This document shows, piece after piece, positions 1,046-64,000 of a stretch of 64,000 bases of DNA. The notes beneath the pieces are model-generated. The model searched no databases. It saw only the letters and a program-made list of their open reading frames with translations, and was not told where the DNA came from. The translations under genes were made by a program, and so were the position numbers. The DNA is from Candidatus Woesearchaeota archaeon (GTDB lineage: Archaea > Nanobdellota > Nanobdellia > Woesearchaeales > GW2011-AR9), in assembly GCA_018655525.1 (NCBI GenBank), contig JABIJM010000008.1, positions 20,836-84,835 on the forward strand, written 5' to 3'. Every line of letters begins with the position of its first letter. Position 1 is the stretch's first letter.

Positions 1046-2008
1046 TTACTTAGAACCAACTAATACAACATAAGCCAAGAAACTTTCTAATTGAATGTAT
1101 TCATCGCTTCCTTCAACCATACGGAACTCTACTTCTCCACATTTGTCAATCAATTGAACTTTCTTTTGATCATCCAGTTCTATTTGCCAAATTTCTTTTT
1201 GGATTTGACGAATAATATCCATTCCAGATAATCCATAGTTTAACATTAAGTCTAATAATTTTTTTCTAGATGTAAGAAAGTCTCCTTTTGCTGCATATGT
1301 TAAAACTTCATTAACTTCTTTTGGTTTTGCAACAGAAGCCATTGAATAGACTAATTCTGGTGTAATGGTAGTACTAATAACTGCACAGGATTGCATAATG
1401 TTTTCTAATCTTCTACAATCACCGTTTGTGATGTCATAAAGAGCTTGCTTTGAATCTTCAGAGATTTGAAGACCTTCTTGTCCAGCAATTTTTGTAATGA
1501 CTGTAAAGACGTCTTCTTTAGGTAATGGTTTGAATCTAAATACAGCACATCTACTTTGAATCGGATCAATGATTTTAGAAGAATAGTTACACGATAATAC
1601 AAATCTACATGTTTTCGTGTAGTTCTCCATGGTACGTCTAAGAGCTTGTTGTGCATCTCTTGTTAGAGCATCACTTTCATCAAGATAAATTAATTTGAAT
1701 GGAACATTTCCAATTGAACGTGTACGTGCAAAATCTTTTACTTTGACACGAATGACATCAATCCCTCGTTCATCGGATGCATTTAATTCTAATGTATTTT
1801 GTCGCCAGTTTTCACCAAATAATTGTTTTGCAATTACTAAAGATAATGTGGTTTTTCCAATACCTGCAGGTCCTGAGAATAATAAATGGGGCATGTTCCC
1901 GGATGCAACAAATGCTTGAATCTTTGAGACTATTTCTTGCTGTCCTTTTACTTCATCAAATGTTTGGGGTCTGTACTTTTCAGTCCATATTGAAGATTCC
2001 TGAATCAT
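1046..2008 (-). CDS. rfcS: Replication factor C small subunit (clamp loader)
   Basis: KYRP...Walker A GPAGIGKTT, DESD box (YLDESDALT), SRC-like motif (QSRCAVFRF). Length 320 aa is typical of archaeal RFC-S. Confidence 0.85.
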   Translation of the reverse strand: MIQESSIWTEKYRPQTFDEVKGQQEIVSKIQAFVASGNMPHLLFSGPAGIGKTTLSLVIAKQLFGENWRQNTLELNASDERGIDVIRVKVKDFARTRSIGNVPFKLIYLDESDALTRDAQQALRRTMENYTKTCRFVLSCNYSSKIIDPIQSRCAVFRFKPLPKEDVFTVITKIAGQEGLQISEDSKQALYDITNGDCRRLENIMQSCAVISTTITPELVYSMASVAKPKEVNEVLTYAAKGDFLTSRKKLLDLMLNYGLSGMDIIRQIQKEIWQIELDDQKKVQLIDKCGEVEFRMVEGSDEYIQLESFLAYVVLVGSK

Positions 2009-15138: not shown

Positions 15139-15615
15139 ATGGGATGGTTATTTGGCAAGAAAAAGGTACCTAAGGTTCCGTTTCCGCAAGGACGGGAAGC
15201 AAATGCATTAAAGTTTCCTTCTAGTACTCCTGCTCAAAGAATTATTGAACCACGTAGTGTTAAAGAAGCGGTTGGTGTTGGAAAAGCTCCATTACCTCCT
15301 TCAAAGCCACAACGCGAAGAAGAAACTTTAGTTCCAAGTCCTAAAGAAGTCCCAAATATGCCAACACCTATGCAACCTCACGAGATTTTTGGTGCAGAAG
15401 GCCCACTATATATTAAGATGGAAGTTTATCAAACAATTCTTGGAGAATTGGATGAATTAAAAACAGATTTCACACGTTTAAATAAATCTCACAGAATATT
15501 AGAAGAATCAGAATTCAATGAAGAACATCACTACGGAAAATTAAAAAATAACATGAAATTAATTCATGATAAATTATTACAAGCAGATAAAACCTTATTT
15601 AAGGTGCAAGAATAG
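15139..15615 (+). CDS. Hypothetical protein (Pro-rich N-terminus, helical C-terminus)
   Basis: ORF with an SD-less ATG. No motif. Confidence 0.4.
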   Translation: MGWLFGKKKVPKVPFPQGREANALKFPSSTPAQRIIEPRSVKEAVGVGKAPLPPSKPQREEETLVPSPKEVPNMPTPMQPHEIFGAEGPLYIKMEVYQTILGELDELKTDFTRLNKSHRILEESEFNEEHHYGKLKNNMKLIHDKLLQADKTLFKVQE

Positions 15616-15859: not shown

Positions 15860-16528
15860 ATGGCAAAACGCAAGACAACACGTAAAAGAACAGTTAAAAG
15901 GAAAGCTACAAAGAAACGAAGTTCTTCAAAACGTAAAGCAACAACTACAAAAAGAACTGTAAAACGAGAATCTGGTCCTGCGTATATGGTTCAATTATCA
16001 GATCCAAAAAGTATTAGAAAAGATATTCTTGAATCTCTACGAGAAGTGATTATTTTTATGCAAGCTCATGAAAAGTTTATGCGGATCCAAGAGGAAAAAG
16101 TAACACTATTTACAAAATTAAAAAATGATGTGAAAGAATTAAATTTATTAATTGAACATAAGTTGAAAAAGCATTTGCCAAAAGGAAAATTAAAGGCAGT
16201 TTCACGATATGTGGAAAAAAGGAAAAAGCAACAAGATATGGAAAAAGTAGAAGTGGTTTCAGCAAGAGAAATGGCAAACAGTCCAAGAATGCCAGAAGTA
16301 CCGGTGAATGTTGTATCAACATTACCTAACGGTTCAATACCTCAGCCGTTACCAAATCCTTTGCCTCCAGCTGCACCTTTACCTCCTCCTCAACCAGGAC
16401 AAACGCCGGCACCTTCTCCAGTTCCAATGGCGCCACCAATGCCTAAGCCTGTTGCGCCTAAATCAGATTTAGATGATTTAGAGAATCAGTTAAAGGATAT
16501 TGAAGACCAATTACGTGGCATCCAATAG
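15860..16528 (+). CDS. Hypothetical protein with a basic N-terminus, coiled-coil and proline-rich segment
   Basis: KRK-rich N-terminus, PLPNPLPPAAPLPPPQP tract, C-terminal coiled-coil. Confidence 0.4.
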   Translation: MAKRKTTRKRTVKRKATKKRSSSKRKATTTKRTVKRESGPAYMVQLSDPKSIRKDILESLREVIIFMQAHEKFMRIQEEKVTLFTKLKNDVKELNLLIEHKLKKHLPKGKLKAVSRYVEKRKKQQDMEKVEVVSAREMANSPRMPEVPVNVVSTLPNGSIPQPLPNPLPPAAPLPPPQPGQTPAPSPVPMAPPMPKPVAPKSDLDDLENQLKDIEDQLRGIQ

Positions 16529-21509: not shown

Positions 21510-22259
21510 ATGAAATTAGTCTTAGCAGAACCAAAATATTTTAAGGATAGTATTAGTATTGTCTCAGAATTAGTTAGTGAAGCTAAATTTAAGGCGACAA
21601 AGAATGGATTAAAGCTGGTAGCAATGGATCCTGCAAATGTGGCTATGGTTAATTTTGAACTTCTAAGCAGTTGTTTTACTGAATATGAAGTAAGTGGGGA
21701 AGAAGAGGAAGTTGCAATTAATCTTGCAAATTTGAAGCAAATTTTACGTAGAACCAAGGGAGATGATATTTTATCCCTTGAAACAACTGAAGATAACAAA
21801 TTAAAAATTGAAATGAAGAGTAACACAACACGTTCATTTTCTATTCCAACATTAGAAATTGATGATAAGGAACAAAAAGTTCCAGATTTATCATTTCCTG
21901 TTGTTGTTGAAATGGATTCTACTACATTAACTGAAGCAGTAGAAGATGTAAGTGTTGTTGCAGAATCTGTAACATTCTTAGGAAGTAAGGAATTATTATG
22001 TGTGAAGGCTGAGGGAGATTTATCTAAAGCGTTTATTGAAATTAAGAATAATGAAACTACTTCCATTAAGGCTGAAACAGATGATAAGTATAAAGCAAAA
22101 TATTCTTTAGAATATTTGAAGAAAATGATTTCTGGCAGTAAATTATCTGCAAAAACAACATTACATTTCAACACCGATTATCCAATGAAACTTGAGTATA
22201 AAGTAACTGATAGAGTTTTATTGAGTTTTATTCTTGCACCTAGAGTAGATAATGATTAG
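21510..22259 (+). CDS. pcn: DNA polymerase sliding clamp PCNA
   Basis: 249 aa. The N-terminal FKAT..GL.L.AMDP..VAMV and overall pattern match archaeal PCNA. Confidence 0.85.
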   Translation: MKLVLAEPKYFKDSISIVSELVSEAKFKATKNGLKLVAMDPANVAMVNFELLSSCFTEYEVSGEEEEVAINLANLKQILRRTKGDDILSLETTEDNKLKIEMKSNTTRSFSIPTLEIDDKEQKVPDLSFPVVVEMDSTTLTEAVEDVSVVAESVTFLGSKELLCVKAEGDLSKAFIEIKNNETTSIKAETDDKYKAKYSLEYLKKMISGSKLSAKTTLHFNTDYPMKLEYKVTDRVLLSFILAPRVDND

Positions 22260-51694: not shown

Positions 51695-52591
51695 ATGCGC
51701 CTAACTCCAAAAAAAATAGAAGAAATTCTCGTTCAGATTATTGGTTCAGAAGGTTTACCTCTTATTCAAAACTTGATTGGGCAAGAAAATGTGTCAGAAT
51801 TTGACCTTGCTACAAAAATTAAGTATGATATTAAGGTTGTAAGAAGGTTATTATACACATTATATAATCATAATTTAGTTGCATTTACAAGGAAAAAGGA
51901 TAAACAGAAGGGATGGTATATTTATTATTGGACTTTGCTTCCAAATAGCATCAGATATAGTTATTTTAAACGTAAAAAAGAACTTCTCGAGAGGTTAAAG
52001 GAACGATTAATTGAAGAACAACAAGAATTATTTTTTGTGTGTCCAAATGATTGTGTACGTTTGAATTTTGATCAATCCATGGATTTTGAATTTCATTGTC
52101 CAGAATGTGGAGAATTGATTAATCAAGATAATGGAAAAGAACGTATTCTTATGCTTGAAAAGAAAATTAAAAACCTTACAAAAGAAGTTGAAACATTAAT
52201 TGAACAGCGTAGTGCTAAACGGAAATTGGTGAAGGAAAGAGCAAGAAAAGCTGAAGAAAAAGCAAAACTAGCTGCACGGAAGAAAGAAGTAAAGAAACCG
52301 GTTAAGAAGAAGGTTGTGAAGAAGAAAGTTGCTGCTAAGAAGAAAACTGCAACTAAAAAAATTCCTGTAAAGAAAAAATCTGATAAAAAGAAGGCTACGG
52401 TTAAGAAAAAAGAAGTTGTCAAGAAGAAGAAAGTTGCAACACGGAAAAAAGCAGCTAGTAAAAAGCCTGTAAAAAAGGTTAGTACTAAAAAGAAAGTAGT
52501 GAAGAAAAAAGTTCCTGCAAAAAAATCAAGTTCTAAAAAAGTAATTAAAAAAACTGTAAAGAAAAAAGTTGCTAAAAAAGCAAAAAAATAA
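51695..52591 (+). CDS. tfe: Transcription factor E (TFE-alpha) with a lysine-rich C-terminal tail of about 125 aa
   Basis: N-terminal wH (VVRRLLYTLYNHNLV...GWYIYYW). Zn-ribbon CPNDC...CPECG. Then KKPVKKKVVKKKVAAKKK... repeats. Confidence 0.7.
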   Translation: MRLTPKKIEEILVQIIGSEGLPLIQNLIGQENVSEFDLATKIKYDIKVVRRLLYTLYNHNLVAFTRKKDKQKGWYIYYWTLLPNSIRYSYFKRKKELLERLKERLIEEQQELFFVCPNDCVRLNFDQSMDFEFHCPECGELINQDNGKERILMLEKKIKNLTKEVETLIEQRSAKRKLVKERARKAEEKAKLAARKKEVKKPVKKKVVKKKVAAKKKTATKKIPVKKKSDKKKATVKKKEVVKKKKVATRKKAASKKPVKKVSTKKKVVKKKVPAKKSSSKKVIKKTVKKKVAKKAKK

Positions 52592-52825
52592 TTAACGTTT
52601 TTTTCGTTTTGTTGTTTTCTTACGTGAAGGAGATCTTTTTCTTGTAATCATTCTCTCAATTACTTTCTCTTCTTTCAAAACACGTGATGTCATTCTTTGG
52701 ATATTTTGTTCCATAGATGCAACTCTTCGTTCTAACATGATTAATACACGTAATGAATATACAATTGCTGCTAAGGTTCCAATAATAACTGCGAGTATTA
52801 CTTCTTCCAATCCTAAACCTGTCAT
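52592..52825 (-). CDS. Small membrane protein with a basic C-terminus
   Basis: 77 aa. One TM helix, then an RKR-rich tail. Confidence 0.35.
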   Translation of the reverse strand: MTGLGLEEVILAVIIGTLAAIVYSLRVLIMLERRVASMEQNIQRMTSRVLKEEKVIERMITRKRSPSRKKTTKRKKR

Positions 52826-53627: not shown

Positions 53628-56600
53628 TTACGCAATAAAATCTCCTAATCCAACTTGTTTATCTTTATCTTTTCCAAATAATGTATCTACATTAAATTTT
53701 AACATTTCTATTGTTTCTTTTAAGAATGGTGAAAAATCATAATTTTCACATAATGTAAGGGAAGGTCCCAAATATTTAACAACAGATCCTTGAGAAATTG
53801 TAAATATTAATTTTCCGCGGCATTCAGAACATTTGCCTGATAATGGTGGCCTTCTATATTTTGCATTGCATCCTACACATCTAAATTTCTGCATTGAATA
53901 TTTTCTGAAATTTCCTTTAATATCTTTAAGAAAATGTTTTTGAATAACTAATTTTGCAACATCATCCATATCTACTGCACGTACCATTTTTGCAATTTCC
54001 ATTTGTCCAATCAATTTATCTGCCATTGTAGGGAGAGTTTTATATGCACTACATTGTACGCCTTTATTGAAATTGTCAACATGATGTGTAAAACCAAAAT
54101 TTTCAAATTGTGTATTTTTATCTAATCTGTCTGCAAGTTGTTCAATTTTTTTTCCATCTACTTTTACTTCCCAAGGATTTTTCATTTCTAACGCAGCTTC
54201 ATAAAATTCAAGAGGATATTTCCATACGATATCCATCCCATGTACTTGGTCGTCAACTTCTGTAGGGTTTAATGTTGAAGTTAATACTAATGGTGCATCC
54301 ATTGTTTTCGCTCCTCTTCTTTCTGGAAGAAATTGTCGTGAAAAATTTAATAGTGAATCCATTAAGAGCATGATACATGCTTCGTCTCCATCACAATCAC
54401 GCCTTAGACCTGCATGATACATAGGATGTGTAATCATCCCCTGAGTTTCAGAATACCCAATAATTCTTCCTACTAATCCTGCTGAAATGTGTGGAGCAAG
54501 ACCGATCATTAAATGGCCAACGAGATCTTCTGGTTTTTTTACATTGTAAAAAGGTTCCATGTGATAAAATTTTACAAGTAATTCATCTACAAAATTGCAA
54601 ACTCGCATTAATACCTTAGGTCCTGATTCTTGTAAAGATTCAAATCCTGGGATGATAACATCCTGAGGTTTCATTTCTATTAATTGATTATCATCTACTA
54701 ACTCTTTTCCATGCATATCTTCATGATATCCTATTTCCCTTAACTTTTCAACTGAAGTGTTAATTTCTTTAGGTTTAAAATGAGTAAGAGGTAATTCCGT
54801 TGCATCTAATCTAGTTGTACCATCTTTGTTTACATAGACTCCATGTTTTGCTCTTAAAATTCCTTTAGAGAGATGTTCCACCAAATGATGTTTGTTCGAA
54901 GTTCCACGAATACCTTTAATTAAATCTGGATGTAATTTTTCTCCTAAGCGTTCTTTTGCTTTATTAAAATAATATTTAATATCTAATTCTTGTGTTTTGT
55001 ATTGCATTCCATCACCATGCCTACAGGATTTTTCGGTTAAATCACCACAAAAACGACAATAATAATTTTGAGAACATTCTTTACCACATTCTTCACAAGA
55101 AGGGTAAACCATTTCTTTTTTACATTCTTCACAATAAAATAATGGAAAAGAACTTGTGATTTTTTTATTGAGTAGTGCAGATTGAAAACTTCGTAAACGT
55201 TCACCTTCGTCTCCTACAGGAAACATTACCTGGGGCGATCCTTTCAAATGACGCATTTTTGCTTTTTCTGGCCGACCCATACGTGCACCAATAAAAGTAC
55301 CTGCCTTATCCCGTAAGGTAAATGAGTTTGATTCATTAAGAATGTCTAATGCTGTTTTTTCTTCATGAGATTCTAAGTTTATATTTTGTAAATCTTGTTG
55401 GGATGAAATATTAAGAGAAAATGCGAGTGATTTTGCATCTTCTAATTCTATCACAACATTCTCTTTACTAATGATTTTATGAGGTAACCCTATATGGTCT
55501 AAAATTAATTTTCCTTTTTGATGTGATTCTTTATCTTTGTAAAATGGAAGAATTATTTTTTGAATGCCTTCTGATGTTTTTTTGATTTTTCCTTCTTTAA
55601 TCCATTGTATTAATAATACTAAATCTTCACTTGAAATTAGTTTCCAATAAAAGGTATAATCTGGATGTAAAGGGATTTGTAATTCTTTTATCAGTAAAAT
55701 AGATTCTTCAAAACTTGGTTGTTTGAATAATGGTTCTGAAATTAATTCTTTTATTCTTGAATCAGGAATTGTAGTTTTCTTTTCTTTTAAAGATTTTTCA
55801 ACTTCTAGTACCCACCATTCAGGACAATATCCTCCTGGAACAAGAGCATGACCATTTTCTGAAAAATCTCCATAATTAAAAAGAATATCTCCGAGAAATA
55901 ATATCTCTTCAATTTGTTTGAGATGTGTTTGAGCTTCTTCTTCAGTTTTTAAGTACATAACTGTGCCATCTTCTAACCTTACAATTGGACCTTCAATAGT
56001 ATCACAAACTGTAATAGTACATGCTTTTCCTGGACGCTCTACTTTTAGTTGGGTTCCTATTGCAATAAATTTTTGTAAAACGACCATCGTTGCGGGGTGT
56101 AACGCAGATGCAGAGAATCCTGTTGTCCTTCCTCTTCCATATCGCAATCGGAATCCACCTTCTGCAAGAGGATGTGTTAAAATAGGTCTACCAGCCACTA
56201 AATCCATAATGAAAGTATTATTTGCTTCAACTACTTTTTCTCCAGATTTTTTGCCGTCATCCTTTTTCTTAGATCCTGCATGAATTCTTTTTTTAATTTC
56301 AAGAAATTCTTCCATCCAATCCCATTCTAAATCAAAACTTTTTCCCCATTTGCCAAGACGTTTCCATAATTTAGGAGCTTTTTGAGATAATCCTTCTGCT
56401 AATACTAATGCAACTCCTCCTCGGATCATATTTGTTGGGATTCTATCTAAATCTTTATTATTAGAAACTTCAAATCTTTCTGTAGGGTCTCCATCAACCT
56501 CTACAGGCAAATGTTCTAGCATAAATTTTAATTCTTCATCTGAAGGTTTATATTGTAAGTTTGTAACTCGATCATTATAATCATTAACTTCAGTCATATA

Positions 56601-57176
56601 TCTATTAATTTCTTTTTCACTTGGATCCCAAGGAGAATAACCCATTTTAACACGAACATAATCTGATAAAATTACAGAAGTTGAAGAAGCCGTTCCCCCT
56701 GCTGCACGAATTGGGCCGGCATACTGCAATGCAAAATATTCCTTGCCATCTCTCCGTTTTTTGATTTCTAATCCTATAAACCCTTCCAAAGGAGCTGATA
56801 CAATCCCTAAAGTTAAATATGCAAAACCTACACGGATGCCAACTTCCATTGCTTCCTTTTTTTCATCGAATTTACAAAATTGTTCTTTTGCAACTTCTTC
56901 TGCAATTTTAAAACCTACACGCCAATCAAGCATCCCATATTCTTTTTCTAACTCAATGATCCTTTCTGGAATTCCAGTATTTTGGATTTGTGGAGACATT
57001 ACTGAAATTAATCCTACTACACGTTCAGCCATGTTCTTAGCAATTGGAATGGGAACTTCTTTTTCTGGATCTAATCCTTTTGCCCGTGCAACTTTTGCAA
57101 TGTCATAACTACGTGTAACTTCATCATTAATACGTTTAAAGTACGCATGTATTTTTGGAGATGCAACTATTGCCAT
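53628..57176 (-). CDS. polC: DNA polymerase II (PolD) large subunit DP2
   Basis: 1182 aa. Cys clusters (CEECKKEM...CEECGKEC..CRFCG) and overall collinearity with archaeal DP2. No intein-sized insertion. Confidence 0.9.
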   Translation of the reverse strand: MAIVASPKIHAYFKRINDEVTRSYDIAKVARAKGLDPEKEVPIPIAKNMAERVVGLISVMSPQIQNTGIPERIIELEKEYGMLDWRVGFKIAEEVAKEQFCKFDEKKEAMEVGIRVGFAYLTLGIVSAPLEGFIGLEIKKRRDGKEYFALQYAGPIRAAGGTASSTSVILSDYVRVKMGYSPWDPSEKEINRYMTEVNDYNDRVTNLQYKPSDEELKFMLEHLPVEVDGDPTERFEVSNNKDLDRIPTNMIRGGVALVLAEGLSQKAPKLWKRLGKWGKSFDLEWDWMEEFLEIKKRIHAGSKKKDDGKKSGEKVVEANNTFIMDLVAGRPILTHPLAEGGFRLRYGRGRTTGFSASALHPATMVVLQKFIAIGTQLKVERPGKACTITVCDTIEGPIVRLEDGTVMYLKTEEEAQTHLKQIEEILFLGDILFNYGDFSENGHALVPGGYCPEWWVLEVEKSLKEKKTTIPDSRIKELISEPLFKQPSFEESILLIKELQIPLHPDYTFYWKLISSEDLVLLIQWIKEGKIKKTSEGIQKIILPFYKDKESHQKGKLILDHIGLPHKIISKENVVIELEDAKSLAFSLNISSQQDLQNINLESHEEKTALDILNESNSFTLRDKAGTFIGARMGRPEKAKMRHLKGSPQVMFPVGDEGERLRSFQSALLNKKITSSFPLFYCEECKKEMVYPSCEECGKECSQNYYCRFCGDLTEKSCRHGDGMQYKTQELDIKYYFNKAKERLGEKLHPDLIKGIRGTSNKHHLVEHLSKGILRAKHGVYVNKDGTTRLDATELPLTHFKPKEINTSVEKLREIGYHEDMHGKELVDDNQLIEMKPQDVIIPGFESLQESGPKVLMRVCNFVDELLVKFYHMEPFYNVKKPEDLVGHLMIGLAPHISAGLVGRIIGYSETQGMITHPMYHAGLRRDCDGDEACIMLLMDSLLNFSRQFLPERRGAKTMDAPLVLTSTLNPTEVDDQVHGMDIVWKYPLEFYEAALEMKNPWEVKVDGKKIEQLADRLDKNTQFENFGFTHHVDNFNKGVQCSAYKTLPTMADKLIGQMEIAKMVRAVDMDDVAKLVIQKHFLKDIKGNFRKYSMQKFRCVGCNAKYRRPPLSGKCSECRGKLIFTISQGSVVKYLGPSLTLCENYDFSPFLKETIEMLKFNVDTLFGKDKDKQVGLGDFIA

Positions 57177-57177
57177 A

Positions 57178-58869
57178 TTAAAATCGTAAAACTTTAACCT
57201 CCCTTGTTTTGAGATTTACTACTGGAACTCGTCCGGGTTCTGGTTCATGACCTAATTTTTCTTGGAAGGAGGTCATACTTTGCCAACAACTTCCACTAAT
57301 CATTGTAATTCCTTTATAATTAGCAACAGAAGAATAATGGATATGTCCGGTAATTAAAAAATCTGGTACTTTTTTAATCAGTAAAGGATCTTCTTTATGG
57401 CCTGGATAATAAGGAGTTGATGTAAATGATGGAGCCATATGCCTTCGTTTAAGAAGGAATTTCATTATTAAGTCAGCTCTTTTATATCCTCCTCCATTTC
57501 GTATTGATTCTACATTTGCAACATAATAATCAAAACTATATCCATGATACATTTGAACATTAAATCCTTCAAAATCCTTTGTTTTTCCAATATTAATCAA
57601 TGCAGGATTTGTCACTAATTCTACATTTGGCAGTTCAAATAATCCTGGAACAAATTGTTGATAAAGTACAGGTTGAGGTTCAGCTAAATGTACAAGATCA
57701 TGGTTGCCTGGACAGATTATAATAGGAATGTGTGAAGGAATTCCTTTGATTAATTCTACAAATTTTTGATATTGTCCTTCAATTGTGGTGATAAATAATT
57801 CTTCTTCATGTCCAGGATAAATTCCAACACCATCTACTACATCTCCTGCAATGAAAATGTATTTTAAGTTACGTGCAATGTTTCGTTGTGCTTCGTTCCC
57901 TACATTTCCATTCGTCCATTCTATAAATTTTTTAAATGGTTCTTCTAAAAAATATTTTGAACCAACATGAATATCTGATAAAAAAATAACATGTTCTTCT
58001 TCTGGTCCTTTTTTCATAACATTAGTTGAAGGAATGTCAGGCCAGACTACATTTTCTGCAAAAATAATTTTATCACCCGTTACTCCTGAAATTCCAACTA
58101 CCTCGTCATAAACAAGGTCTTTACCATCTAAAAAAAGATCTTTTTTATTTTTTGAAATAAGAACTTTAATTTTTCCAGTGAAGTCTTCTAACGTCAACAT
58201 CAAATTTCCATTCTTTGTTTCACCAATTTCTTCGACAATCCCGATGATAGAAACATTTTCTCGTTCTTTTTTTTCAAGAACTCTACTTATAGAAAGCATA
58301 TTTTTTAATTCTTGTCTATTTCTGAGTATGTTTTCTAAAAACTTAAATCGCGATGTAAAGAAATGAGTGAAATCTGCAACTGTAAATTTGTGAGGTTTAT
58401 TTTCATAAGAAATTATAATTGTAACTGCTGAAGAGGGCTGAACAATATTTTGTGGTGACAATTCTAATTCTAAATGTTCTTTTTCTTTAAGTTCTTCAGG
58501 AGTGCCTAGATTTGTTTTTTGTGTATCTTCTAATTCAACTTCTAAACTACTGACATCTTGGTTACTTTTATGTTGAGGGACATCAATTGAAAGAGTTGAT
58601 GTTTTGAAACTCTGTAATTGAGATTGGTAAATGTCGTCATTTCTATCTTTTTCAGAATTTACACGCATTTCATCTACTTCATGCCAATCAACAAGTGAAG
58701 ATTCTTGTTTGATGACATCTACATAATCATCATTAAGTACTATTAAATCAGATTCTGTTTCTAATTTTTGACGTAAATTTTTGTCAAGGCCTTTTTGAAG
58801 TAGTTCTTCATTTAGTAAGATCCCTTTTTCGAACATTTCTTCTATTAATTTTTCACGGCTCGTTGTCAT
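57178..58869 (-). CDS. polB: DNA polymerase II (PolD) small subunit DP1
   Basis: C-terminal calcineurin-like phosphoesterase motifs (GDVVDGVG, GNHD, GHIH). N-terminal OB region. Confidence 0.85.
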   Translation of the reverse strand: MTTSREKLIEEMFEKGILLNEELLQKGLDKNLRQKLETESDLIVLNDDYVDVIKQESSLVDWHEVDEMRVNSEKDRNDDIYQSQLQSFKTSTLSIDVPQHKSNQDVSSLEVELEDTQKTNLGTPEELKEKEHLELELSPQNIVQPSSAVTIIISYENKPHKFTVADFTHFFTSRFKFLENILRNRQELKNMLSISRVLEKKERENVSIIGIVEEIGETKNGNLMLTLEDFTGKIKVLISKNKKDLFLDGKDLVYDEVVGISGVTGDKIIFAENVVWPDIPSTNVMKKGPEEEHVIFLSDIHVGSKYFLEEPFKKFIEWTNGNVGNEAQRNIARNLKYIFIAGDVVDGVGIYPGHEEELFITTIEGQYQKFVELIKGIPSHIPIIICPGNHDLVHLAEPQPVLYQQFVPGLFELPNVELVTNPALINIGKTKDFEGFNVQMYHGYSFDYYVANVESIRNGGGYKRADLIMKFLLKRRHMAPSFTSTPYYPGHKEDPLLIKKVPDFLITGHIHYSSVANYKGITMISGSCWQSMTSFQEKLGHEPEPGRVPVVNLKTREVKVLRF

Positions 58870-60065
58870 AGTTGTAATTCTTTTTCTAACATTTCTTTAA
58901 GTTTGATGATAATTCCTTCTTCTAATGAAAGATTGATTTCTCGAGTTCTCCCATAGCGTCCTTTAGAAATAATTTTTGCATTGATAATTCCAAGCATATC
59001 CAATTCTGCCAAAATATCTGAAACACGGCGTTGTGTTAAGATATTAAGATTAGATTTTTTACATAATGTCCCATAAATTTCATAAATTTCTCCTGTAAAA
59101 AATTGACGTTTCTGAGGACTAATCAACATGATTGCAAATAATACTAATTTAAACTGGCGTGGCTGATTCATTGCAGCGCTAATAAGTTTGTCAGATTCTA
59201 CTTTTCTTTCTGCAGCATCTAAATGTGTAATTTCAACTTGTCGTGAACCACTTCTCTCTGCTATTTCTCCTGCAACACGTAATAAATCTATTGCTCTTCT
59301 TACATCTCCATGTTCACGGGCTGCATAAGCTGAACATTTTTCAATTACACCTGTTTGAACAGTACCATCATTAAATGCAGAATTTGAACGGTTTCGTAAA
59401 ATTTCTTGAATTTGTAGAGCATTGTAAGGTGGAAAAATGATGTCTTCTTCCGAAAGACTACTTTTCACACGTGGATCTAAATTTTCTGCGAATATTAAAT
59501 TGTTAGAAATTCCAATTAAACAAATTTGTGAGTTTTTTAATTCTGCATTAATTCTCGTTAAATTGTAAAGAACTTCATCACCAATTTTTTTTGTTAATTG
59601 ATCTATCTCATCAAGAATAAGAAGAATAACTTGTTTTTCTTGGTCTAATAATTTGTAAAAGATATTATAAATTTCATCTGTTGGTAAACCTGTGGAAGGA
59701 ACATCCCTTCCAAAACTCTTGATTAATTGTGAAATTAGTCTATATTCTGTATCTGCTACACGTTTTAATTTACAATTTACATAGATTGGTTTTAACGCAA
59801 TGTTATTTTTAACTGCAATCTCCTTCATAGAATTCACAATACTTTTCATTGAAAGAGTTTTTCCAGTACCTGTTTTTCCATAAATAAACAAATTAGAAGG
59901 TTTTTCATTTCTAAGGGCAGGTGCTAGAATGTTTGCTGCTTCACTCATTTGTTCTTCTCGATAAATAACATTCTCTGGCATATAAGAAGATAGTAAAACA
60001 TTCTTATCTCTAAAAAAAGAATCCTGTTTAAGGTAATTTTCAAAAAAGTTATTGATTCCAGACAT
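58866..60065 (-). CDS. cdc6: Orc1/Cdc6 replication initiator
   Basis: AAA+ Walker A GKTGTGKT, Walker B LILDEID, C-terminal winged helix. The start codon directly abuts an ORB element. Confidence 0.85.
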   Translation of the reverse strand: MSGINNFFENYLKQDSFFRDKNVLLSSYMPENVIYREEQMSEAANILAPALRNEKPSNLFIYGKTGTGKTLSMKSIVNSMKEIAVKNNIALKPIYVNCKLKRVADTEYRLISQLIKSFGRDVPSTGLPTDEIYNIFYKLLDQEKQVILLILDEIDQLTKKIGDEVLYNLTRINAELKNSQICLIGISNNLIFAENLDPRVKSSLSEEDIIFPPYNALQIQEILRNRSNSAFNDGTVQTGVIEKCSAYAAREHGDVRRAIDLLRVAGEIAERSGSRQVEITHLDAAERKVESDKLISAAMNQPRQFKLVLFAIMLISPQKRQFFTGEIYEIYGTLCKKSNLNILTQRRVSDILAELDMLGIINAKIISKGRYGRTREINLSLEEGIIIKLKEMLEKELQL

Positions 60066-61306: not shown

Positions 61307-62143
61307 ATGGTTTTAGAAGCATTATTCAATCCCTTTACTATAAAAAAGAAACCTTGGCAGATGTTTACTGCAGGATTTCTTTATTCTATAATTGCATTAG
61401 CGATGTCTTATGTTGTTTTTACAGAAATTGCAGGGATCTTAATGATTTTTCTTATTGTTATTGCAACTTTACCTATTTTGTATTCTACAATTAAAGGTGA
61501 AGAAGAATTAGATTTAGAAATTAAGAAGGAATCTGTTCTTTTAAAGGAACATACAAAAGTTCTTGTCTTTCTTATGTTCTTATTTTTAGGGATAACAACT
61601 GCGTTCGTATTATCCTATGTATTCTTACCAAGTGCAATGGTTGATTCTGTGTTTTCTTTACAACAAAATGCAATCAACTCGGTGAATGTCAATATTAATG
61701 CTGAAGTCACGGGTAATATTACTAAAATAGACCTTTTCAGTAGAATTTTTGTAAATAATCTTAAAGTATTATTTTTCTGTTTAATTTTTTCATTACTTTA
61801 TGGAACTGGTGCTATTTTTATACTAACGTGGAATGCTTCTGTGATTGCAACCGCCATAGGAAATCTTGTAAAAATTAAAGCTGCCGAGAGTATAGGTGGG
61901 ATAACTTCTTATTTTAGTGTTGCAATTTTTAGTTTTATGCGTTATATGACTCATGGGGTCTTTGAAATTGTAGCATATTTTGTTGCGGGGTTGGCAGGTG
62001 GAATCATTTCTATAGCTTTAATTAAACATAATATGGAAGAAAGAAGTGTTTTAGTTGATGCATTGGATTTAGTATTGATAAGTTTAGGATTAATTATTGT
62101 CGCTGGTGTGATTGAAGTTTATGTTACACCTTTGTTTTTTTAA
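61307..62143 (+). CDS. Polytopic membrane protein (SpoIIM/DUF95-like)
   Basis: 278 aa with 6-7 TM helices. Confidence 0.45.
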   Translation: MVLEALFNPFTIKKKPWQMFTAGFLYSIIALAMSYVVFTEIAGILMIFLIVIATLPILYSTIKGEEELDLEIKKESVLLKEHTKVLVFLMFLFLGITTAFVLSYVFLPSAMVDSVFSLQQNAINSVNVNINAEVTGNITKIDLFSRIFVNNLKVLFFCLIFSLLYGTGAIFILTWNASVIATAIGNLVKIKAAESIGGITSYFSVAIFSFMRYMTHGVFEIVAYFVAGLAGGIISIALIKHNMEERSVLVDALDLVLISLGLIIVAGVIEVYVTPLFF

Positions 62144-62862
62144 AGAACTTTAACTCTTCCAGGTTGGTTTTGAAAGATGTCCCCTGATTCCATCATTTTT
62201 TCAATTAGTTGTTCGGTATCATCTAATATGGATTGTTCAATGATTTCTTCAATTAAGACTCCTTCTCCTTGATCTAATTTTTTAATTAATTGTGTGATTT
62301 TTTCTATAGGGAGAAGTTTTTCTTGTTCTTTTGTTTCTTCAGATATTTCTTCTATAATTGGCTTTTCAATTGTTTCTACAATTTTTTCTTCAACAATTGA
62401 AGGAGATATTTCTTCTTTTTTTACATCTAATTCAACCATACCTTGTAATTCTAACATACGAACTTTTAACCATGCTGCACTTGTAGCTTTCATGATTTCT
62501 GGAGATATATATTTTTCATTATTATACATCCGTACTTTACCAATTATGACTACAAAGTCTCCCACTTTAACTTGTTTTAGATATGCTAATTCTTCAAATG
62601 AACGGGCTACCATTTGTCCGGTTTGATCTTCAATTAACATATTTGTAATTGAACCAACTTTTTCTTTTTGAATAATAATTCCAATGAGGTTTACACGGAA
62701 CACTTTCCCATGGTGGAGAGTTTGAATATGGTGAGGGAGTTCAGGATCTGTATTTACAAATGTACTATGATTAATTTCTTGGATAGTTGTTTTAATTGCA
62801 GTTTGCCGTACGTATTTATTTTTTTCATCCTTTATTTGTGGTGTAGTTTGTTCCATTATCAT
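62140..62862 (-). CDS. OB-fold nucleic-acid-binding protein with a C-terminal winged helix (RPA32-like ssDNA-binding protein candidate)
   Basis: OB-fold pattern (VNLIGIIIQKEKVG...VKVGDFVVIIGKVRMYNNEKYISPE). Acidic linker. C-terminal wH-like helix bundle. Sits between oriC and mcm. Confidence 0.45.
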   Translation of the reverse strand: MIMEQTTPQIKDEKNKYVRQTAIKTTIQEINHSTFVNTDPELPHHIQTLHHGKVFRVNLIGIIIQKEKVGSITNMLIEDQTGQMVARSFEELAYLKQVKVGDFVVIIGKVRMYNNEKYISPEIMKATSAAWLKVRMLELQGMVELDVKKEEISPSIVEEKIVETIEKPIIEEISEETKEQEKLLPIEKITQLIKKLDQGEGVLIEEIIEQSILDDTEQLIEKMMESGDIFQNQPGRVKVL

Positions 62863-64000
62863 AACCTCTGGATAAATCCTCGTTTAGGTTCAAAAATATC
62901 TCCTGTTCGTCGTAATTTTTCTAACGTTGCTTCTACTTTTTCTTTAGGAATATTTTTTTCTTGTGCAGCTTCAATGATATTTTCAACTGGAATTATTTTA
63001 GAATTTAATTGTGATTCCATTTCTGCAATGATTTCTTTGATTGTACTAATTCCACTTCGTTGAGTTGCAGTGATTCTACTACTTAATCTATCAATATCAA
63101 TTTTTCCTGTTTCAGAATCTTTCGCAATTTGATCTAAACAATAACTTACAAGTTCAATTCCTTTTTGAGCATCCTTTTTTGTGACTAATTTTGCAAATCG
63201 TAATTTTGCAGATGCTTCTGCAAGACGTACAAGAGCTTCTAATTGCCTTGCAGTGATAGGGATACTTTTTACGCCTCCTTCGTCCCCTCCTGAATTTCGC
63301 ATGGTGATATAATAATCTTTAATTTCCGCAATGGCTTCATCAGTCATTTTAGGATTCATATTTTTACGAATGTATATGAAATATTTTCTTAAAATGTCTG
63401 TATCTAATTTTGCAATTACTTTATCTGGATCTTTGTGCAAACTTAAAATGAAACTAGCGGTTGCTTCATCTTTTTCCTTACTAGGCATATCCTTTACAGG
63501 AAAAATTAAATCAAAACGTGAAATTAATGCTGGAGGAAGATTAATTTGGTTTGCAACTAAATCATAAGGGTCGAATCTTCCAAATTTAGGGTTTGCTGCT
63601 GCAATTACGGAGGTTTCACATCTCAATGTTGCTTGGATGTTTGCTTTGGAAATAGAAACTGTTTGTTGCTCTAGCGCTTCATGTAATGCAGAACGGTCTT
63701 CTTTAGTCATTTTGTCCATCTCATCAATAATTGCAAACCCTTTATTTGCAAGGACTAAAGTTCCTGCTTCTAAACTCCATCCACCTAGAAATTCATCTTT
63801 AACTACAGAGGCTGTTAATCCTGCTGCACTTGCTCCTTTACCGCTTGTAAATCTTGATTTTGGCGCGACTGCGGTGATTCTTTTTAGTAATTGGGATTTT
63901 CCAGAACCAGGATCTCCTATTAGAAGAATGTGCATGTCACCTCTTGTGATCACGCCGTCTGGACGAACTTTTCTTGAGCCTCCAGCAAGTTGTAGGACTA
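62859..64000 (-). CDS. mcm: MCM replicative helicase (C-terminal about 380 aa, N-terminus beyond the window)
   Basis: AAA+ Walker A GDPGSGKS, Walker B IDEMDKM, arginine finger SRFDLIF, C-terminal wH. The reading frame stays open to the window edge; the listed M at 63953 is a GTG within the ORF. Confidence 0.85.
   Translation of the reverse strand, partial: VLQLAGGSRKVRPDGVITRGDMHILLIGDPGSGKSQLLKRITAVAPKSRFTSGKGASAAGLTASVVKDEFLGGWSLEAGTLVLANKGFAIIDEMDKMTKEDRSALHEALEQQTVSISKANIQATLRCETSVIAAANPKFGRFDPYDLVANQINLPPALISRFDLIFPVKDMPSKEKDEATASFILSLHKDPDKVIAKLDTDILRKYFIYIRKNMNPKMTDEAIAEIKDYYITMRNSGGDEGGVKSIPITARQLEALVRLAEASAKLRFAKLVTKKDAQKGIELVSYCLDQIAKDSETGKIDIDRLSSRITATQRSGISTIKEIIAEMESQLNSKIIPVENIIEAAQEKNIPKEKVEATLEKLRRTGDIFEPKRGFIQRL

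Follow-up and report, generated by a model that had tools for sequence, protein, structure and literature searches.

Lineage-wide lysine-rich extension of the basal transcription factor TFE-alpha in Woesearchaeota, a candidate DNA anchor

The TFE-alpha gene and its neighborhood

The window, meaning the whole 64-kb stretch of DNA analyzed here, has a GC content of 32.4% and carries a complete TFE-alpha gene on its forward strand (ORF 51695..52591, ending in a TAA stop codon) that encodes a protein of 298 aa. The Pfam model PF02002 (TFIIE_alpha) matches aa 8–108 with an E-value of 3.3e-16 and a score of 59.5 bits against a cut-off of 22.9. In profile searches, the NCBIfam TFE-alpha models span aa 6–167 and are covered over nearly their full length (positions 15–178 of 185 in PRK06266 and 4–161 of 162 in TIGR00373). 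Their equivalog thresholds were not reached (142.3 bits against 180 for PRK06266 and 120.1 against 149.5 for TIGR00373), which reflects the divergence of the DPANN version of TFE-alpha. When the AlphaFold2 model of the protein was compared with the PDB using Foldseek, the top match was Thermococcus kodakarensis (Tko) TFE-alpha bound to RNA polymerase (RNAP) (6kf4_G, E=1.8e-12), superposed over 162 columns with a TM-score of 0.79 on the target and an rmsd of 2.9 Å; the yeast and human TFIIE-alpha proteins ranked next. Pfam, NCBIfam, the Foldseek match to 6kf4_G and the RNAP-contact residues described below all agree with the gene name given in the first-pass annotation, and the protein is a genuine TFE-alpha, the basal factor for transcription initiation, from an archaeon of the Woesearchaeota (Nanoarchaeota in GTDB).

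At least 23 contigs, drawn from assemblies of JGI, Logan, ENA and NCBI, encode an identical 298-aa protein, and the neighboring genes on them are constant: Hjc, TFE, a 77-aa ORF, aIF2-beta, DUF424 and PolD DP2. The 77-aa protein (52592..52825, minus strand; VILAVIIGTLAAIVYSLRVLI...ERRVASME.NIQ) contains one transmembrane helix and a variable R/K-rich C-terminal tail of its own, and has no Pfam family. Its gene lies tail-to-tail with that for TFE, their stop codons abutting. A minus-strand ORF of at least 45 aa follows TFE in 34 of the 37 related species genomes compared (loci L001–L040); about 32 of these ORFs are clear homologs of the 77-aa protein, mostly separated from TFE by 0–30 nt. At the convergent junction (52500..52630), runs of 6–7 T occur on each gene's own sense strand within about 30 nt after its end, comprising a T7 at approximately 52598–52604 on the plus strand and T7, T6 and T6 runs on the minus strand inside the TFE tail-coding DNA. 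Since oligo-T is a termination signal in archaea, the Lys-codon-rich 3' end of each convergent gene may, speculatively, serve as the terminator of its partner.

Replication genes of the window encode PolD DP2 and DP1, Orc1/Cdc6, an OB-fold protein, MCM, the RFC small subunit and PCNA, and occupy 53628..60065 and 62140..63935 (minus strand), 1046..2008 (minus strand) and 21510..22259 (plus strand), with the MCM gene cut off by the window end. On the minus strand, the genes for PolD DP2, DP1 and Orc1/Cdc6 stand next to one another, a grouping that may indicate a nearby replication origin.

Domain organization and polymerase contacts

Domain boundaries were taken from the AlphaFold2 model, generated from a 41-sequence alignment (mean pLDDT 79.7), with secondary structure assigned by DSSP. 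All of the following parts lie on the plus strand. An extended winged helix (aa 1–81, 51695..51937; pLDDT 88–96) is followed by a linker helix (aa 83–110, 51941..52024) matching one helix of the Tko two-helix bundle, and by a zinc ribbon (aa 113–143, 52031..52123). From aa 148 to 199 the model shows a single unbroken helix with pLDDT above 90. Its first part (aa 148–171, 52136..52207) corresponds to the canonical C-terminal return helix, as judged from the NCBIfam matches, which run to aa 167, and from the alignments of Tko TFE-alpha (185 aa, aligned to aa 6–180) and Pyrococcus furiosus (Pfu) TFE-alpha (195 aa, aligned to aa 11–191). The second part (aa 172–199, 52208..52291; pLDDT 90–97) is a lineage-specific basic helix extension with a net charge of +9. 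The remainder (aa 200–298, 52292..52588) is a lysine-rich low-complexity tail predicted to be disordered, with pLDDT 45–55 and no secondary structure.

The winged-helix and zinc-ribbon core is intact, including the residues that contact RNAP. C116, C120, C135 and C138 are invariant in both the 18- and the 41-sequence alignments, and align to Tko C117, H122, C137 and C140, giving a zinc site of four Cys here compared with three Cys and one His in Tko. Among the Tko TFE-alpha residues with reported clamp and stalk roles (PMC7704642), the clamp-contacting Y55, F65, W75 and Y78 align to Y54, F64, W74 and Y77, and the stalk-contacting Y114, Y115, F127, D128, M131 and F135 to F113, F114, F125, D126, M129 and F133. 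Because these contact residues match those of Tko, the protein should dock on RNAP in the usual manner.

Canonical TFE-alpha, represented by the structures from Tko (6KF4/6KF9 chain G) and Pfu (6PLN), is the best sequence match (E=3.5e-24) and has the winged helix, two-helix bundle and zinc ribbon in common with the present protein. The first-pass annotation held that TFE ends after the zinc ribbon, which overlooks the C-terminal helix and short basic tail that canonical TFE-alpha adds beyond it. That tail has been described in archaeal TFE-alpha as 16 positively charged, untraceable residues at the C-terminus (PMC7704642). A charged disordered C-terminal tail is thus shared, but its length differs roughly eight-fold, from about 16 aa in canonical TFE-alpha to 127 aa here, and the present protein additionally has a 28-residue structured helix extension bearing a lineage-conserved basic motif. 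Measured against the canonical lengths of 185 and 195 aa, the earlier figure of about 125 extra residues is accurate, and the lysine-rich region that had been placed at 52200–52591 (aa 169–298) is real; both the known short tail of archaeal TFE-alpha and the position-conserved basic helix preceding the low-complexity part were absent from that account.

Composition of the extension

Residues 172–298 (127 aa) consist of 46.5% K, 15.0% V and 12.6% A, with a net charge of +59, and contain 21 K clusters spaced about every 5 residues. In the 39 other long ORFs of the window, lysine averages 9.3% (SD 3.2%) and reaches a maximum of 16.1%. The extension comprises two parts that differ in how they are conserved. 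In the ungapped column profile of 74 species, aa 172–191 display the motif R-K-x-R-R-K-x-x-K-x-R-K-K-x-V-K-x-K-K, conserved position by position, with K/R frequencies of 62–84% at positions 172, 173, 175, 176, 177, 180, 182, 183, 184, 187, 189, 190 and 191. Beyond approximately aa 192, composition alone is conserved across orthologs, at about 50% K per column. Residues 200–298 include 52 K/R and 2 D/E, for a net charge of +50.

Recent tandem-repeat expansion was rejected as the origin of the tail, as the arrays that Tandem Repeats Finder detected in its DNA were all short and degenerate, with about 2 copies and 79–84% matches. The antisense ORF at 52123..52422 (minus strand), encoding 99 Phe-rich residues, mirrors the Lys codons and sits within a coding region under purifying selection. 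It was never annotated as a gene at the 10 places compared, so that its earlier designation as an artefact, a by-product of Lys codons, is reasonable.

Such tails are lacking in the window's RFC, PCNA, PolD DP1 and DP2, Orc1/Cdc6 and MCM, and likewise in its OB-fold protein, Hjc and RNase J, indicating that the tail is not a proteome-wide habit of nucleic-acid enzymes here. Apart from TFE-alpha, only one window ORF of at least 80 aa contains a stretch with 16 or more K/R per 40 aa. This other strongly basic stretch belongs to a 222-aa protein (15860..16528, plus strand), in which a K/R-rich N-terminal tail of 36 aa is followed by a coiled coil in the middle, a Pro-rich stretch and, at the C-terminus, an acidic amphipathic helix (DLDDLENQLKDIEDQLRGIQ). 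The protein has no Pfam match, and its gene is adjoined by a 158-aa ORF (15139..15615) that is likewise without an assignment.

Distribution and selection

The distribution of the extension was surveyed at three levels of relatedness. Among the 120 closest homologs, which are 63–100% identical in the core, 118 carry 53–166 K/R-rich residues after the zinc ribbon; the remaining two have 28 and 44 residues and come from records that give no contig information. Scanning a single genome for each species yielded 80 loci, of which 74 were scored as having a recognizable zinc ribbon and a complete gene. An in-frame basic extension was present in all 74 (22–160 aa, median 51, K+R 42–67%), placing the 127-aa tail of the window at the long end of the species range. 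This ortholog comparison, which the first-pass annotation had called for, excludes its alternative of a stop codon after the zinc ribbon with a frameshift joining two ORFs, as does the recovery of the identical protein on so many contigs.

At greater distance, 864 TFE-like proteins were found among 50%-identity cluster representatives at E≤0.001, and tail classes were scored on the 130 usable cores from the best 150 of them, a basic tail being defined as at least 25 aa with at least 30% K+R. By this definition, 74 of the 130 have a basic tail, in some cases longer than 200 aa, 46 have no tail and 10 have an acidic or other extension. Those tailed representatives that have a source name are assigned to Candidatus Woesearchaeota or Nanoarchaeota, and some of the tail-less ones may be truncated gene calls. 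Acidic (D/E-rich) C-terminal extensions, recalling the acidic C-terminus of eukaryotic TFIIE-alpha, occur in the distant relatives P0174, P0188 and P0225. Given the approximately seven-fold range in tail length and the absence of a tail from about a third of the distant relatives, TFE can function without a long tail. The extension described here is an enlargement, shared across the lineage, of the known short basic tail of TFE-alpha.

Substitution rates were estimated against a 92%-identical ortholog (locus L001). In the 127-aa extension, pN was 0.145 and pS 0.68, so that pN is about one-fifth of pS across its whole length; in the core, the values were 0.037 and 0.43. The tail is clearly under purifying selection, though its rate of evolution is about four times that of the core. 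Codon usage within it is also distinctive: AAG accounts for 22 of 59 Lys codons (37%), compared with 246 of 1393 (18%) in the 39 other long ORFs (Fisher p=4.6e-4). Through this raised AAG share, A-runs in the tail DNA are held to at most 7 nt, whereas the longest would be 12 nt if every Lys codon were AAA. The enrichment suggests selection against slippery poly-A tracts or for translatability, of which it is the expected outcome.

Proposed function and alternative explanations

On the basis of its charge, its geometry and analogy with other lysine-rich tails, we consider that the extension probably acts as a non-specific electrostatic DNA anchor, tethering TFE and RNAP to promoter DNA. A short ancestral basic tail would have expanded into the rigid basic helix (aa 172–199) and the polylysine-like region (aa 200–298). 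The winged helix would dock on the RNAP clamp and the zinc ribbon on the stalk, as in Thermococcus. In Tko TFE-alpha, a bundle of two helices separates the winged helix from the zinc ribbon and places these domains more than 50 Å apart (Jun et al., PMC7704642). [quoted passage not shown] Because of this return path, the basic helix and the flexible polycation would be expected to emerge near promoter DNA, where they could bind the phosphate backbone independently of sequence. The predicted consequences are a higher local concentration of TFE and RNAP on DNA, stabilization of the pre-initiation and open complex, and slower dissociation.

Comparable tails are known from bacteria. The C-terminal lysine repeats of Streptomyces TopA and the tails of HupS/HU are likewise lineage-specific, variable in length and attached to a conserved DNA-transacting protein, and the TopA repeats have been shown experimentally to stabilize the enzyme–DNA complex (PMC5714199). 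DNA-binding proteins in general are enriched in lysine-rich low-complexity regions (PMC6821194). The analogy has its limits, as TopA and HupS/HU are unrelated bacterial proteins encoded by GC-rich genomes, acidic residues terminate the TopA repeats, and the function tested for TopA was enzyme processivity rather than transcription initiation.

A DNA anchor on TFE-alpha may also relate to its partner subunit. TFE-beta folds as a protein of its own, built from a winged helix and a 4Fe–4S domain, and the tail bears no resemblance to it. TFE-beta (TFIIE-beta) aids open-complex formation and, in Sulfolobus, binds the C-terminal region of TFE-alpha, whose tail (aa 148–178) is needed for this binding (PMC4495717). 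DPANN archaea are reported to be without TFE-beta (PMC7289017); as the subunit is reported absent from the lineage, the tail may supply the DNA affinity given elsewhere by the DNA-facing domains of TFE-beta, and in this functional speculation may fill part of its role.

The alternative that survives best, though rather unlikely, is that a conserved basic segment of about 20–50 aa is functional and that expansion to 127 aa represents largely neutral growth, a drift driven by AT-biased mutation and slippage in AAR-rich DNA. Such growth is consistent with the spread in tail length among close species, with the retention of composition alone past approximately aa 192, and with the short degenerate repeats in the tail DNA. 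Tail length also correlates negatively with the GC content of flanking DNA across 73 species (Spearman rho -0.51, p=4e-6), with a median of 82–93 aa below 36% GC and 44–48 aa above. However, this relation, strong in the raw data, vanishes in 27 sister-pair contrasts (10 versus 7, p=0.63; rho -0.14, p=0.47), indicating that the correlation may be a clade effect rather than a sign that genome AT content drives tail length. Neutral growth is further opposed by the excess of pS over pN throughout the extension, by a lysine fraction that persists at about 44% even at 40–48% GC, and by the AAG enrichment with its suggestion of selection for translatability.

A more far-reaching version of the anchor model is that TFE-alpha of Woesearchaeota and related Nanoarchaeota has become a single-subunit factor whose own DNA anchor (the aa 172–191 helix plus the polylysine region) replaces what the beta subunit contributes to promoter binding and opening, and could also keep RNAP–TFE permanently on an AT-rich nucleoid. 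We regard this version as unlikely.

Polycations bind RNA as well as DNA, and a disordered polycationic region would not discriminate between the two. The tail might hold nascent transcripts near the stalk, delay the replacement of TFE by Spt4/5, or work as an RNA chaperone. The stalk subunit, on which the zinc ribbon docks, is in contact with nascent RNA (PMC7289017). However, in the published bundle description the C-terminal helix heads back to the winged helix and promoter DNA, away from the zinc ribbon and stalk; TFE is displaced early in elongation (PMC7289017); and searches of Pfam and NCBIfam found no RNA-binding domain. An RNA-directed role accordingly appears very unlikely.

Equally doubtful is a second role in chromatin, in which the protein would coat or compact the genome in the manner of a linker histone. 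The C-terminal domain of H1 is disordered, about 100 residues long and about 40–47% lysine, with a high net positive charge, and the tail is similar in disorder, length, lysine share and charge density. The first-pass description of the tail as H1-like or HU-like therefore holds for amino-acid composition, but fails for domains, motifs and model score. Pfam returned no match to Linker_histone (GH1) at E≤0.01, the sole winged helix being of the TFE type, and none to HU (Bac_DNA_binding). The bacterial H1-like model hist_H1_lk_Burk (NF038053) gave a weak compositional match of 13.8 bits against a cut-off of 80 (E=0.052). S/TPxK motifs are absent from the tail, in which prolines occur in KKPV, KIPV and KVPA, and which is rich in K/V/A where H1 is rich in K/A/P. 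Homology to H1 or HU was rejected on the domain and model-score results. Unlike H1, the tail is joined to an intact initiation factor with conserved RNAP contacts, which points to action at the polymerase. The proposal that it replaces histones as a chromatin protein has no basis, as both histones and Alba have been reported from Woesearchaeota (PMC6136690). A tblastn search with an HMfB query gave no histone match in the 64-kb window, a result that says little of the whole genome and carries no weight. The finding has no bearing on histone or chromatin evolution of the kind suggested earlier.

Finally, an assembly, repeat-expansion or frameshift artefact fusing TFE to a downstream ORF is virtually inconceivable, since A-rich low-complexity DNA is indeed prone to sequencing error but the same protein comes from independent assemblies, the tails are in frame in every species scored and in nearly all of the closest homologs, the A-runs are short, and purifying selection acts in this very frame.

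Biological significance

Of the three basal initiation factors in archaea, TFE is the one least understood, and we know of no experimental work on transcription in DPANN archaea. The long lysine tail of DPANN/Woesearchaeota TFE is undescribed in the searchable literature, whose coverage is incomplete, so that an earlier description may exist. As a probable DNA anchor, the extension adds an archaeal case to the recurring lysine-repeat tails on DNA-transacting proteins, and it is relevant to the question of how the loss of subunits is made good in minimal archaeal transcription systems. Should the single-subunit version be true, TFE-alpha of this lineage would represent a distinct and previously undescribed way in which archaea with reduced genomes achieve basal initiation. 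A tail that is lineage-wide and under selection, in a group reported to be without TFE-beta, provides a concrete and testable hypothesis.
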